The notes: generated from the sequence alone by a model not told the origin. Positions 15,448-22,455 are shown, counted from the stretch's first letter. The stretch is 32,000 nt of DNA from Candidatus Syntropharchaeum caldarium (GCA_001766815.1 LYOS01000002.1:60001-92000), one strand, 5' to 3'. Made by a program: numbers and translations.

Positions 15448-15912
15448 TTATATCCTCGCAGGTCCTGCATCTGCAAACCCCTGCCGTTGACCTGTCCCCG
15501 CCTCTTTCTCAAGGGCCTTTGGGTTGAAAAGCAGTTTCAGGACGTTTCTGGCGTGCTCCCGTGTTCTTGCATCCGCAAGCTTCACAAGTTCTTTATCATC
15601 CGCAGCCTCGTCTTCATGTACAAACACCTCAATTATGTGCTTATTTGTCAGAAGCTGCGCATGGATTATCCCAAGTGATGCCTCGTGCGCACACTGCTTG
15701 TCAATCTCCTCAGGTCCTGGCATACCAAGCGCGATCACGATATCACACCCCATCTCCTCGATCAATTTCTTGGAAGCGACAGGGAGGTCCTTCACACCGG
15801 GCACTGTGTAGCGTTCAATTCTGACAGATGCGCCTCGCTTAAGCTCCTCGATCGCAGCCTTTCCCATATCATACCGTGCAAATGCAGTATCTGCAACACC
15901 AACCTTTGCCAT
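15448..15912 (-). CDS. ribC: Riboflavin synthase, archaeal type
   Basis: 154-aa ORF colinear with archaeal RibC throughout: [70 protein letters not shown]. Confidence 0.9.
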
Positions 15913-15942
15913 CAGATAAAAGACGCTCCTTCTGATTTAAAA

Positions 15943-16851
15943 CTATACTGTCTCAGATGAGAAATAGATCGTATCACCTGTTTTCAGATCATTGAGAAGT
16001 TCACGGTTTTCTGTCACTGTGCCCACGATGTTACTTGCTTTGAAGTTCTCGCCTGTTGGCCCATATTTTTCACTTGGTTTGAGTCGTATGCCTATCGTCC
16101 CCGCACCTTCTTTTGCCATATTTGTCACACCAATTGTAAAGCTCTCCATCACATCAGGGGTATTCTCTGGCATTATACTCCGCTTATATCCTGCTCGTTC
16201 ATCGAAGAGAACGAACGCACGGTATTTCTTCTTGACGCTCAGTTTTCCAACACCAGCCCTCATAAAGGTTGCATATCTGAAGTAGTGAAGTGTCTGGTCT
16301 ATATTTTCACATAGTTTTATCCTGAGGATCTTATCTGATGATATGCCGTATGTCCTGACCTCTCCTGTTTTAAGAATGGATATCGTATAGACTGGGTTCT
16401 GTTCTACAATGATTGCGTCGTCCTCGATCGCGCCCTCCCGGATTTGATGGATTCCACGCGCACTGAGCATCCTGTATGCCTCCTCCTGTTGCATTCCGAT
16501 CGCCATTATTCGTGGTGGTTCAACAGAAAGCATAACCTCATCGGATGCCTTCAGCCCTTCCAGAACCTCTGTATTCTCCAGTATGCCCACAACATCGTGC
16601 GATCTTGAGGGTAAAACATTGCGTCGATAGATGTAAACATTACCAATGCCATTTCCCGTGTTTCTCACTGTTACAGTGTTACTTGAACGAAAACCTGTGG
16701 GATCGTCACCATTTCCATAGAAATCAGCCGACCCCACGATCTTTACGTACGTATCGTTAATCTCTTCTACCTTCAAAGTTCGATCTGCTACGACGTAGAT
16801 ATAGTCGCTTGCCTCATTCTCACTGATGACCTTCAATCGTATTTCTTTCAT
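15943..16851 (-). CDS. Methanogenesis-marker-like protein of the A2/Mmp7 operon (possibly Mmp3/UPF0288-related; uncertain)
   Basis: 302-aa ORF with a 4-nt ATGA overlap with the upstream gene. Operon context is with AtwA and a McrC/Mmp7-family gene. No motif I can assign firmly. Confidence 0.45.
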   Translation of the reverse strand: MKEIRLKVISENEASDYIYVVADRTLKVEEINDTYVKIVGSADFYGNGDDPTGFRSSNTVTVRNTGNGIGNVYIYRRNVLPSRSHDVVGILENTEVLEGLKASDEVMLSVEPPRIMAIGMQQEEAYRMLSARGIHQIREGAIEDDAIIVEQNPVYTISILKTGEVRTYGISSDKILRIKLCENIDQTLHYFRYATFMRAGVGKLSVKKKYRAFVLFDERAGYKRSIMPENTPDVMESFTIGVTNMAKEGAGTIGIRLKPSEKYGPTGENFKASNIVGTVTENRELLNDLKTGDTIYFSSETV

Positions 16852-19794: not shown

Positions 19795-20655
19795 TTATAC
19801 AGATGGAACACTCAGCGGAAGTTCAATGATTATATCGTCCTGTGTGCCCCTCTTTATGCTGCCAAACTCACCGAGTTTACCAAAGTAAAATTCCATCTCT
19901 CCGAGTTTCTCTGCATATTCATCATAGGATGCGTTCACTCTGAGACCGCTCATTTTGAGTACCACGTTCACACCAAACTTTGATTCAATCTCGGTTTTTA
20001 TATAGGGATAGGTTGCAGGAACATCAGGTCGAAGGCTTCCGATGATCGAGATTACACTCTCCATAAATGCACCTATTATCCGTTTATCATCAGGATCATC
20101 GAACATCGTTGGTATCCTTGTAATAGACGGGATGAAAATCAGCTCATCATCAGACTCAAGATCTGCATAGCCTGTCACGATCACAGGTACATTAAGCCTT
20201 CTGCAGAGTTCCATCTTCTCACGGATACAGTGCTCAAAACATCCAAACATGAAGATCGCCAGATCGTGCTCCTCGATCATCATCCGCTCTTCCCTCATCA
20301 GAATCGCCTTTCTGCCAACGCCTCTTGCAGGTGCGATTGTGTTCACCTTTGCGCCAGCCTGCCGCAGTGTCTCAACCGTGCTGCAGTGTGGAAAGGGTGT
20401 GTGATGAAGATTAAATGAGGGGATGATCACCGCAACTTCGATACCATAGAGCGGTACAGTGATAACCCTTCCTGAATGCTTACGGAGAGCTGCCCGTTTA
20501 CGCAGAATGTTCACCGATTCATGATCTATCATCACATCAAATTCTGCAACACCACCCATCTGGTCTATGTTCAGGACAAAACCGCCAAGATCCTCTATGA
20601 ACTCAATTATTTCGTCTGATTCAAACGCATTTCCGATATATTTTAGCGGCATCAT
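19795..20655 (-). CDS. Cys-containing protein of unknown function in the A2/Mmp7 operon
   Basis: 286-aa ORF, 14 nt from the Mmp7-like gene. It has conserved-looking Cys/His patches (HHTPFPHCST, FMFGCFEHC). I cannot assign it to a marker family. Confidence 0.45.
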   Translation of the reverse strand: MMPLKYIGNAFESDEIIEFIEDLGGFVLNIDQMGGVAEFDVMIDHESVNILRKRAALRKHSGRVITVPLYGIEVAVIIPSFNLHHTPFPHCSTVETLRQAGAKVNTIAPARGVGRKAILMREERMMIEEHDLAIFMFGCFEHCIREKMELCRRLNVPVIVTGYADLESDDELIFIPSITRIPTMFDDPDDKRIIGAFMESVISIIGSLRPDVPATYPYIKTEIESKFGVNVVLKMSGLRVNASYDEYAEKLGEMEFYFGKLGEFGSIKRGTQDDIIIELPLSVPSV

Positions 20656-20673
20656 TTTTATTCCACGCCGTAT

Positions 20674-22455
20674 TCAGCTCAGATGGAAATACCTGTATGC
20701 ATCTCCCGTATCCTCAATCTCACCGCCTTTTGAGACAAAGTCGGCGTACTTTCGATTGACAAATTCATTACAGATAGTCTCAGGATCGCCTGTCATCAGA
20801 ATTTCGCCACGGTGTATCAGCAGTGCCCGGTGTGCAAGCTCCTTCACCGCATCCAGTTGATGGCTCACGAGGATTATTGTGAGGTTGTGCTCCTTGTTGA
20901 GGGTTTTTATTGCATTTATACATTTACGCAGCGAGATAGGATCGAGATCTCCGAAAGGCTCATCGAGCAAGAGGACCTCTGGCTTCTCCGTCATGTGAAG
21001 AGCAAGCGCAACCCGTATCTGCTCACCTGCACTGAGTTCATATGTATAGTGATCCATGAGAGAAAGAGGAAGATCGAGCGCTTCAAATATGGGTTTCATC
21101 CGCTTTTTAGCTTCGTCTGCAGGTATCGTTGGGAATAACTTCCTCAGAATCCCTGGATCAAGTTTCAGCTCCCTGAGCATGTCTTTCATCTCATCTTCTG
21201 GCAGATCTGCAAGTCTATAAAGTACATCCAGCTTCACGTCACTTAGTCCCATTTCTCTCGCCCGTTCGACCACCTCAGGCAGGAATCGCACGTCCTTTAG
21301 CCCAAGTTTCTGCTCAAAGAGGTGCAGCACGATTTCATAGTGCGTGAGCGCAAACTCCTGATGTAACGTTGAGATGTTAAGACGCGCCTTTACAGCATCA
21401 TAACCATAGGTACAGATATTTGTCCAGCGCTCTTCACCACCATCGTTGATCCTGTAGGTAACCTCACCAAACTGAGGAGGTTCAAGTCCTGCAAGCAACC
21501 TGATCAGTACTGTCTTTCCAGCAGCACATGGTCCAACGAGTGCAAGTATCTCGCCTTCGTAGATATCGAAGTTGAGATTTTTCATCTGGATCGTCTCGAT
21601 AAACTTTGCACCTGATGTGGTTATCTGGTAACGCTTCCAGAGGTTGGTGAGGCGCATCTTCGGCACTTCTCGTGGTATCGATGGCTCAACGGGTTGATCG
21701 ATCTTTGCAACAAACTTTTTAATGATCTCATCTGGTTTCCCCTCATCAACCACCTTTCCTTCCTCAATCCAGAGCACCCTATCAGCGAGAGTTTCGTGTA
21801 TTTCTGGCATATGAGAGACAAATACAACAGTAACACCAGCATTCTCATTTATTTTTTTTATCGCATCAAGCATCATCCCTCGACCAACAGGATCTATCAT
21901 GGTGGCTGGTTCATCTACAAGAAGAACACGTGGATTTGCTGCGAGCTGTCTCGCAAGCAGAACACACTGCTTCTCACCGCCGCTGAGGATATTGTAGTAG
22001 TAATACTTCTTATCCAACATGCCAACAATATCAAGAATCTCGGAGGCCCGTTTGAAGAGTCGTTTATAGTCGTTTGAACCTGTTGTAGGTATCTCTTCAA
22101 AACCTGTCTCAAGCTTTCCCAGTTTTCGCATCACATTATTTATCACACTCTCAGGCCATAGTGCAAACGAACGTTGCAGATGCAGTGCGGTTATCTTCTG
22201 GAGTTCAAGCTGTTCATTGGAATTAGAGTCAGGTGTGAGTGTGATACCATCAACCCTTACAGATCCTTCTTTAAATGATTCCACGCCCCTTAAAATTCGC
22301 AAGAGTGTGGTTTTTCCTGCACTGCTCCTTCCTAATATACCCAGAACTTCACCCTCATCGACTGAGAACGAGACGTTCTCAAGAGCAGTGTGTTCTTTCT
22401 CAATCTTTGAGATCTGATAAGTCTTCGTTAAATTTTCTACTTCGATGATCTTCAT
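20674..22455 (-). CDS. Divergent tandem-NBD ABC ATPase (A2 paralogue-like), first gene of the operon
   Basis: 593-aa ORF with strong SD AAGGAGGT. NBD1 is GRSSAGKTT/LSGGEKQ/LLVDEPATMIDP. NBD2 is GPCAAGKTV/LSAGEQIR/LLLDEPFGDLD. About 165 aa separate Walker A and signature in NBD2 (a helical insert). No TM segments and no zinc ribbon. Confidence 0.75.
   Translation of the reverse strand: MKIIEVENLTKTYQISKIEKEHTALENVSFSVDEGEVLGILGRSSAGKTTLLRILRGVESFKEGSVRVDGITLTPDSNSNEQLELQKITALHLQRSFALWPESVINNVMRKLGKLETGFEEIPTTGSNDYKRLFKRASEILDIVGMLDKKYYYYNILSGGEKQCVLLARQLAANPRVLLVDEPATMIDPVGRGMMLDAIKKINENAGVTVVFVSHMPEIHETLADRVLWIEEGKVVDEGKPDEIIKKFVAKIDQPVEPSIPREVPKMRLTNLWKRYQITTSGAKFIETIQMKNLNFDIYEGEILALVGPCAAGKTVLIRLLAGLEPPQFGEVTYRINDGGEERWTNICTYGYDAVKARLNISTLHQEFALTHYEIVLHLFEQKLGLKDVRFLPEVVERAREMGLSDVKLDVLYRLADLPEDEMKDMLRELKLDPGILRKLFPTIPADEAKKRMKPIFEALDLPLSLMDHYTYELSAGEQIRVALALHMTEKPEVLLLDEPFGDLDPISLRKCINAIKTLNKEHNLTIILVSHQLDAVKELAHRALLIHRGEILMTGDPETICNEFVNRKYADFVSKGGEIEDTGDAYRYFHLS

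Follow-up and report, generated by a model that had tools for sequence, protein, structure and literature searches.

Reduction of cofactor F430 to the Ni(I) state, the activation step of methyl-coenzyme M reductase (MCR), was solved structurally only in 2025, and for one methanogen. In the activation complex of Methanococcus maripaludis (PDB 8S7V), the co-purifying set consists of McrC, Mmp7, Mmp17, Mmp3, component A2 and a 10.6-kDa DUF2098 protein (Nature 2025, PMC12176620). We analyzed a 32,000-nucleotide stretch of the genome of Candidatus Syntropharchaeum caldarium (GCA_001766815.1, LYOS01000002.1:60001-92000), referred to hereafter as the window. An open reading frame (ORF) listing of the window revealed an operon of seven co-directional genes on the minus strand, running from 22455 to 15448, which is predicted to encode the whole subunit list of the M. 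maripaludis complex plus a paralogue of A2 and the riboflavin synthase RibC. We estimate at roughly 75% the probability that the products of this operon make up a self-sufficient, ATP-dependent complex for the reductive activation of the coenzyme M reductases in Ca. Syntrophoarchaeum.

Several features of the described systems bear on this locus. In the cryo-electron microscopy structure, the [8Fe-9S-C] clusters are liganded by McrC H49/H118 (FeSI), McrC C12/C55 (FeSII) and Mmp7 H84/C143 (FeSIII), with Mmp7 C90 as a possible extra FeSII ligand (PMC12176620). McrA's N-terminal helix is held by Mmp3 Y404/F405 with the help of A2 P396 and F399, McrC binds the DUF2098 protein via a flexible loop, and the N-terminal domain of Mmp3 is mobile and poorly resolved while its C-terminal domain contacts McrA and A2 (PMC12176620). 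Three other markers, Mmp5, Mmp6 and Mmp15, could not be deleted in Methanosarcina acetivorans (bioRxiv 10.64898/2026.03.18.712670). A2 sequences were found to track the type of reductase of their host, MCR or alkyl-coenzyme M reductase (ACR), from which its authors conclude that A2 proteins of the two types probably cannot replace each other; Methanoliparia, which host both reductases, carry two distant A2 genes, one per reductase type, and a homologue devoid of the zinc motif, of the MA_3967 type, served as the outgroup of the A2 phylogeny (2026 preprint). The absence of mcrC from the mcr operon of ANME-1 archaea was already known from the Syntrophoarchaeum butane-oxidation paper. Ca. Syntrophoarchaeum itself, a butane oxidizer described in 2016, possesses four divergent mcrBGA-type gene sets and forms butyl-coenzyme M. 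Our literature search on ACR activation found nothing beyond PMC12176620 and bioRxiv 10.64898/2026.03.18.712670.

The spacers between the seven genes are, in transcription order, 18, 14, 35, 3, -4 (an ATGA overlap) and 30 nt. The third spacer, between the mcrC and A2 genes, measures 17 nt if A2 starts at a TTG codon and 35 nt if it starts at the ATG at 18965, 18 nt further downstream; 35 nt is the better value because a GGAG ribosome-binding site precedes this ATG by 9 nt and because independent gene calls on the same DNA also choose it, giving a protein of 522 aa (528 aa from the TTG). The first ATG of the operon is preceded by a GGAGG ribosome-binding site (22463-22467, minus strand) and, about 55 nt upstream, by a putative archaeal TATA box, TTATATAT (22508-22515, minus strand). 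A T6 run (15415-15420, minus strand), 28 nt past the RibC stop codon, is a plausible archaeal terminator, and the cytochrome gene located downstream has an AT-rich upstream region of its own. All seven genes look like a single transcript. A sigma-70 promoter and intrinsic-terminator scan was set aside, as its counts were at shuffle level and its models are invalid for archaea. The genes are real, far beyond chance, since all seven ORFs have strong family matches. Family scans covered the main ORFs, meaning those in the window of at least 120 aa that do not lie antisense within a larger gene; bit scores were judged against NCBIfam curated cut-offs and Pfam thresholds, and structural matches against PDB chains. 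A preliminary description of the window, made from its sequence, had reported seven co-directional genes with these spacers, a second divergent ATPase with two nucleotide-binding domains (NBDs) at their head, cytochrome genes on both sides and no mcr gene in the window. All of this was borne out: the ORF list and the analysis of the A2 start agree with the gene layout, the head gene codes for an A2 paralogue lacking the zinc motif, the cytochrome genes lie at 14423-15157 (minus strand) and 22647-23342 (plus strand), and the NCBIfam and Pfam scans detected no mcr or acr structural gene among the ORFs of the window.

All six subunit families were recovered, both by NCBIfam or Pfam profiles and by similarity to chains G to L of 8s7v: McrC, Mmp7, Mmp17, Mmp3 (C-terminal domain only), A2 and DUF2098. 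The second gene of the operon (19795-20655; this and the following coordinates refer to the minus strand) encodes Mmp7, 286 aa, which matches TIGR03274 over its full length at 188 bits, under the cut-off of 349, as well as PF04609 (E 6e-50) and PDB 8s7v_H (E 9e-31). Given this low score together with a full-length match and an unambiguous fold family, we consider it a divergent subfamily of Mmp7. Mmp17, 181 aa (16848-17393), passes the cut-off of TIGR03291 (113 bits vs 67) and matches PF09886 (E 8e-39) and PDB 8s7v_G (E 4e-12). The last gene (15448-15912) codes for RibC, the archaeal riboflavin synthase, 154 aa, with a TIGR01506 score of 233 bits vs a cut-off of 100 and no counterpart among the 8S7V chains. 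Three of the six activation-type proteins (the A2 paralogue, Mmp7 and McrC) fall under the NCBIfam curated cut-offs, A2 and Mmp17 pass them, and Mmp3 is of half length; the locus is thus not a set of canonical markers throughout. Comparison with the genes of a close relative revealed purifying selection, with ratios of nonsynonymous to synonymous substitutions (dN/dS) of 0.11 for A2, 0.09 for Mmp17, 0.22 for Mmp3 and 0.05 for RibC.

The residues expected to carry the metal clusters are all present. McrC H48, H115, C11 and C54 align to H49, H118, C12 and C55 of M. maripaludis and are invariant in 11 homologues, and Mmp7 H85, C91 and C143 align to H84, C90 and C143 and are invariant in 4 divergent Mmp7 sequences. 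All seven cluster ligands of McrC and Mmp7 are therefore conserved. Component A2 (AtwA; 17397-18965 for the 522 aa from the ATG, 17397-18983 for the ORF from the TTG) scores 559 bits with TIGR03269, above the cut-off of 517, and matches PDB 8s7v_K over its full length (E 6.5e-122). It comprises two NBDs, each with a full set of ABC motifs, and a zinc-binding motif of the form CxxC...CxxC, CENCERVDTPSRTECPRC (CENC...CPRC). The residues equivalent to P396 and F399 of M. maripaludis are P and I, respectively. The preliminary description had placed the locus in the ATP-dependent reductive-activation machinery of methyl- or alkyl-coenzyme M reductase, an assignment which the family and 8S7V matches uphold, and its labels for a component A2 with zinc ribbon and for RibC were right. 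Its "Cys/His-patch protein" proved to be Mmp7 and its "McrC/Mmp7-family" protein an McrC::DUF2098 fusion, and the three proteins it held to be unassignable could be assigned by NCBIfam, Pfam and PDB 8s7v as Mmp7, Mmp17 and the C-terminal domain of Mmp3.

The fusion of McrC to DUF2098 is confirmed. The 259-aa protein (19001-19780) consists of an McrC domain (residues 1 to about 192; 19205-19780) whose C-terminus is joined via an acidic linker to a DUF2098 domain (residues 207-258; 19007-19162). The McrC domain matches positions 1-188 of the 194 of TIGR03264 at 180 bits, under the cut-off of 213.5, and PDB 8s7v_I at E 6e-45. The tail scores 35 bits with PF09871 (cut-off 25); searched alone, its top PDB matches are the DUF2098 chains 8s7x_L and 8s7v_L, both weak (E 0.12-0.15). 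In an AlphaFold2 model of the fusion (predicted local distance difference test score 83), the McrC part matches 8s7v_I (TMt 0.81) and the tail matches 8s7v_L (TMt 0.86; root-mean-square deviation 1.1 Å over 46 columns, 37% identity). When 1.84 billion representatives were searched exhaustively by HMMER with McrC as the query, only 53 McrC-family clusters were returned; in 3 of them (260-265 aa) the match spanned almost the entire query and took in most of the DUF2098 tail. The fusion is present in all five genomes of GoM-Arc1 ethane oxidizers retrieved (GTDB species representatives), among them Ca. Argoarchaeum ethanivorans and Ca. Ethanoperedens thermophilum, and in GCA_054798995.1, a metagenome-assembled genome (MAG) labelled Methanospirareceae, where it belongs to a McrC::DUF2098-Mmp7-A2-A2 cluster. 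On TIGR03264, the fused McrC of GoM-Arc1 scores 233 bits, which passes, and that of the MAG 202 bits. In a neighbor-joining tree of the McrC domain, a simple method applied to a thin sample of canonical methanogen McrC, the fused forms, GoM-Arc1 included, and one unfused 196-aa sequence make up a bipartition with a bootstrap of 100, apart from the McrC of ANME-1, Methanonatronarchaeum and WYZ-LMO15. Because both partners form one polypeptide here and in ethane oxidizers, the fusion is Rosetta-stone evidence that the McrC-DUF2098 contact is physiological and conserved. A literature search for such a fusion turned up nothing beyond PMC12176620 and bioRxiv 10.64898/2026.03.18.712670.

The Mmp3 of the operon is a natural deletion. 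The 302-aa protein (15943-16851) scores 249 bits with TIGR03268, above the cut-off of 234, but covers only positions 218-501 of the 503 of this profile, and it matches residues 214-495 of PDB 8s7v_J (E 5.5e-52). The cyclophilin-like N-terminal half, about 215 aa, is absent; a Pfam match of the cyclophilin type falls in this domain in one full-length Mmp3 homologue. Owing to the ATGA overlap with mmp17, there is no space upstream of mmp3 for a hidden N-terminal domain, and a tblastn search of the window with the N-terminal halves of 8 full-length Mmp3 proteins yielded nothing significant (best E 0.008, on the opposite strand inside mcrC). A split Mmp3 made of the 181-aa and 302-aa proteins, as the preliminary description had suggested, is ruled out: the 181-aa protein is Mmp17, and no N-terminal domain is encoded in the window. 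A frameshift or assembly artefact was likewise dismissed, given the recurrence of the short form on two independent metagenome contigs and the dN/dS of 0.22. These contigs, which belong to a relative, show the A2-Mmp17-302-aa Mmp3-RibC arrangement at 82-97% protein identity (Mmp3 82%), complete with the ATGA overlap with mmp17, the 302-aa length and the 30-nt spacer between mmp3 and the RibC gene. Recurrence of the short form in the relative, together with its dN/dS of 0.22, marks it as a maintained gene, so that at least one lineage can do without the mobile N-terminal domain of Mmp3. Two partial entries aside, the other Mmp3 homologues obtained, in a search limited by its word index, measure 500-519 aa. 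At the position of the aromatic pair, Y404/F405, the window reads K/K and the 82%-identical relative K/N, while each of the 11 longer homologues examined retains an aromatic residue in at least one of the two places. The protein of the window thus departs from the two-domain, roughly 500-aa Mmp3 with a Y404/F405 pair in length as well as in these residues.

By analogy with Methanococcus, the products of the operon would assemble into a complex in which McrC::DUF2098 and Mmp7 hold three [8Fe-9S-C] clusters wiring low-potential electrons to the Ni of F430. Electrons of a low-potential donor would enter at the Mmp7/Mmp17 cluster, Mmp17 capping the distal cluster, and would run through the McrC clusters to F430. 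The C-terminal domain of Mmp3 and A2 may keep the reductase alpha subunit's N-terminal helix open, with ATP binding and hydrolysis by A2 presumably driving the conformational cycle. The target would be an ACR, and the fusion, the short Mmp3 and the altered clamp residues may be adaptations to the divergent ACR alpha subunits.

The first gene of the operon (20674-22455) encodes a 593-aa protein which is a paralogue of A2 and not A2 itself. It reaches 291 bits with TIGR03269, vs the A2 equivalog cut-off of 517. It is 28% identical to the A2 of the window, the region of the zinc motif is without any cysteine, and its second domain contains an extra helical segment of about 50 residues relative to that A2. 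Each of its two ABC nucleotide-binding domains retains intact Walker A, signature and Walker B motifs. By sequence, its best PDB match is the A2 chain 8s7v_K (202 bits, the next best reaching 133); by fold the best match is again 8s7v_K (E 6e-39, TMt 0.77), with fused-NBD importer ATPases not far behind. Family members of about 570 aa are common in ANME-1, GoM-Arc1 and Methanobacteriaceae.

Our reading is that the operon serves as a lineage-specific cassette for activating ACRs. An ACR is the most likely client because the genus has four divergent mcrBGA-type sets, forms butyl-coenzyme M and is not known to possess a canonical MCR, and a lineage-specific module fits the report that A2 tracks the reductase type of its host (2026 preprint). 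Several observations weigh against this reading. With no acr or mcr structural gene in the window, only the organism connects the operon to a particular reductase, and the paper describing the genus states only the four mcrBGA sets. Family scans of the window's main ORFs turned up no Mmp5, Mmp6 or Mmp15. In the MAG labelled Syntrophoarchaeum sp. WYZ-LMO15, McrC is unfused (227 aa) and falls into a different clade, and one carrier of a fused McrC would host MCR, provided that its label, Methanospirareceae (ANME-1c), is correct. The paralogue, finally, is elsewhere unlinked to activation genes, and stands among housekeeping genes in ANME-1 and Methanobacteriaceae. The locus could be an ordinary MCR activation operon of methanogens or methanotrophs with nothing specific to the lineage, as the conserved cluster ligands, the scores of A2 and Mmp17 above their cut-offs and the clustering of activation genes in Methanosarcina and Methanothermobacter would allow. 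We regard this as very improbable: Mmp7 (188 vs 349) and McrC (180 vs 213.5) miss their cut-offs, Mmp3 spans profile positions 218-501 only, McrC bears a DUF2098 tail, McrC is missing from the M. acetivorans operon, which includes Mmp5, Mmp6 and Mmp15, and the host genus has four divergent mcrBGA-type sets. The gene order tells the same way. A scan of GTDB representatives with the fused-McrC alignment retrieved 42 loci, none closer than 43% identity; the order of the window appeared in none of them, nor on other contigs except those of the same species, the A2-Mmp17-short Mmp3-RibC portion being also found on contigs of the close relative, and ANME-1 has A2-A2-McrC. The idea of a variant activation module, rather than a standard operon, put forward in the preliminary description, is therefore right in outline and wrong in detail. 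Another explanation is that the operon is one of at least two activation sets, a paralogous cassette serving some ACRs while a canonical set of McrC, Mmp7 and full-length Mmp3 encoded elsewhere serves others. The four reductase sets of Syntrophoarchaeum, the WYZ-LMO15 McrC of a different clade, the two A2 genes of Methanoliparia and the tandem A2 duplicates of ANME-1 genomes would all agree with such a division of labor. Yet none of the 53 McrC clusters in the 1.84 billion representatives is tied to the species of the window, and WYZ-LMO15 is a different species whose McrC may be the only copy of that lineage, so we consider two sets rather unlikely.

The paralogue poses a separate question, namely whether it is a mere passenger with a function unrelated to reductase activation, the common promoter being peculiar to the lineage. 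We find the evidence on this evenly balanced, and its participation in activation has roughly even odds or lower. In favor of a passenger, it is without the zinc motif carried by A2 and has the housekeeping surroundings already mentioned. Moreover, an IF-2B-family gene (PF01008) comes right after the paralogue, overlapping it or 3 nt away, in two genomes of GoM-Arc1 and in a related contig from a metagenome (L052, 8001-10750; L064, 10001-12774; L065, 8471-11238), a conserved pairing which hints at a function of the paralogue family outside reductase activation. In the Methanospirareceae-labelled MAG GCA_054798995.1, a paralogue 63% identical to that of the window lies 24 nt downstream of a gene for a 490-aa B12-binding radical-SAM protein (L047, 2165-5382), on another contig than the McrC::DUF2098-Mmp7-A2-A2 cluster. 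Against a passenger, its closest solved relative by both sequence and fold is A2, the gene lies 18 nt from mmp7, a junction also seen on independent assemblies, and the named relatives among its best 120 matches are all methane- or alkane-metabolizing archaea. Two candidate parallels were discarded. The linkage of the paralogue to Mmp17-Mmp7 in GoM-Arc1 E37 was taken as incidental, as it is not found in Ca. Argoarchaeum, and a correspondence with the GCA_054798995.1 cluster, as one zinc ATPase plus one without, was ruled out because the first A2 there has a Cx4C variant. The position of the paralogue at the head of the operon is suggestive, and its contexts elsewhere give no general link; it could, weakly, be the first genomic link found between this orphan family and activation genes. 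By position, the paralogue and RibC would be co-transcribed with the activation genes, and they may participate in activation. It is doubtful that the operon is a dedicated ACR cassette with the paralogue as a working component, perhaps a second ATPase, which together with the short Mmp3 and McrC::DUF2098 adapts one electron-delivery core to four ACRs. If this were true, the fused-McrC clade would be a genomic marker for ACR-type activation.

The surroundings of the operon are rich in cytochromes. The two that bracket it are 49% identical paralogues with 3 and 5 CxxCH motifs. The named members of the 90%-identity cluster of the 231-aa cytochrome adjoining the operon are Ca. Syntrophoarchaeum sp., a Ca. 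Syntropharchaeales archaeon and a Guaymas "Methanosarcinales archaeon" MAG, a name also borne by 90%-identity relatives of the thermosome and the ABC ATPase of the window. It is through such names of relatives of neighboring genes, rather than through a phylogeny, that the analysis assigned the window to Ca. Syntrophoarchaeum. GoM-Arc1 E37 has two paralogous pentahaem genes, 35-38% identical, beside McrC::DUF2098 (L003, 8564-9232) and beside Mmp17-Mmp7 (L052, 2366-2980). Small multihaem c-type cytochromes are thus encoded directly beside activation genes in two lineages of alkane oxidizers, those of the window and of GoM-Arc1 being barely similar; as signal or anchor sequences are present at their N-termini, co-regulation and not physical interaction may explain the adjacency. 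Transcribed just after the 231-aa cytochrome gene is that of a giant multihaem cytochrome of 2300 aa (23356-30258, plus strand). Its 17 CxxCH motifs are accompanied by four Golvesin_C domains, an F5/8-type-C-like domain and bacterial TSP3 repeats, and a membrane anchor lies at the C-terminus; such an architecture typifies the proteins used by syntrophic alkane oxidizers for extracellular electron transfer. Convergent with the giant gene, a gene at 30280-31590 (minus strand) encodes a 436-aa protein with cohesin and lamin-tail domains, which may be a surface protein. A gene for a URO-D/MtaA-like methyltransferase, of the MtaA family and under the equivalog cut-off, is found within a few genes of McrC in the window (12097-13170, minus strand), in the Methanospirareceae-labelled MAG (L048, 476-1522) and in WYZ-LMO15 (L061, 8812-9870, directly upstream). 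Further away, the HMG-CoA reductase encoded at 5471-6727 (minus strand) scores, at 493 bits with TIGR00532, as a class II enzyme of the NAD-dependent "degradative" type and not as the class I enzyme usual in archaea, and a tRNA-Met (CAT) gene at 8140-8216 (minus strand) is the sole Rfam or ARAGORN match in the window.

The activation of the divergent ACRs of ethane, propane and butane oxidizers is a gap in knowledge and an obstacle to heterologous ACR expression. The complex itself being already known, what is new here is a compact and rearranged activation operon in an alkane oxidizer. The locus overturns nothing; it provides a concrete, ready-made cassette, suited to co-expression with the Syntrophoarchaeum ACRs, that codes for all of the complex as defined by structure, together with testable predictions for the ACR activation problem.

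The A2-A2-McrC clusters of ANME-1 (Methanophagales) resemble the operon in having McrC outside the mcr operon and beside two tandem-NBD ATPases. However, both ATPases of ANME-1 are true A2 proteins with zinc motifs, the McrC is unfused (198-233 aa) and of a different clade, and Mmp7, Mmp17 and Mmp3 are absent from these clusters. Tandem full-length A2-A2 genes with zinc motifs directly upstream of McrC occur in many ANME-1/Methanophagales genomes, and a single A2 in a few (5 loci: L013, L014, L030, L032, L037). The GoM-Arc1 archaea (Ca. Argoarchaeum, Ca. Ethanoperedens) and MAG GCA_054798995.1 share with the window the fusion architecture and the McrC clade, and the Mmp7 of the MAG is also under the cut-off, at 190 bits. 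Yet their fused McrC proteins are only 39-54% identical to that of the window, and in GoM-Arc1 the fused McrC stands alone among housekeeping genes, Mmp17-Mmp7 forming a separate pair. A search of metagenomes with the divergent Mmp7 alignment returned at least 4 loci at 33-37% identity, those listed being all Mmp17-Mmp7 pairs of GoM-Arc1-like aspect. In the cluster of the MAG (L048, 7582-9255), the first A2 has a Cx4C...CxxC variant motif and scores 510 vs the cut-off of 517, and the second scores 432. Beyond the close relatives of the window, Mmp3 homologues are full length, save the two partial entries. The homologue of the MA_3967 type agrees, by its description, with the 593-aa paralogue in its two NBDs, its lack of a zinc motif and its host range; we found no literature report of its function and no link to activation genes is reported for that family, whereas the paralogue of the window heads an activation operon.

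The operon of M. acetivorans (around MA_3998; bioRxiv 10.64898/2026.03.18.712670) is co-transcribed and contains A2, Mmp17, Mmp7 and Mmp3, as in the window; unlike the latter, it has Mmp5, Mmp6 and Mmp15 and is without McrC, DUF2098 and the A2 paralogue. With the M. maripaludis complex (PDB 8S7V, 8S7X, 9H1L; PMC12176620), the window has in common the six protein families, the seven ligands, the zinc motif of A2 and both NBDs. In Methanococcus the genes are dispersed, mcrC being part of mcrBDCGA, a protein of its own (10.6 kDa) represents DUF2098, and Mmp3, at 56.5 kDa, has two domains and the Y404/F405 pair, whereas the window gathers all of them in one operon, fuses DUF2098 to McrC, retains only the C-terminal domain of Mmp3 with K/K in place of the aromatic pair, and adds the A2 paralogue.

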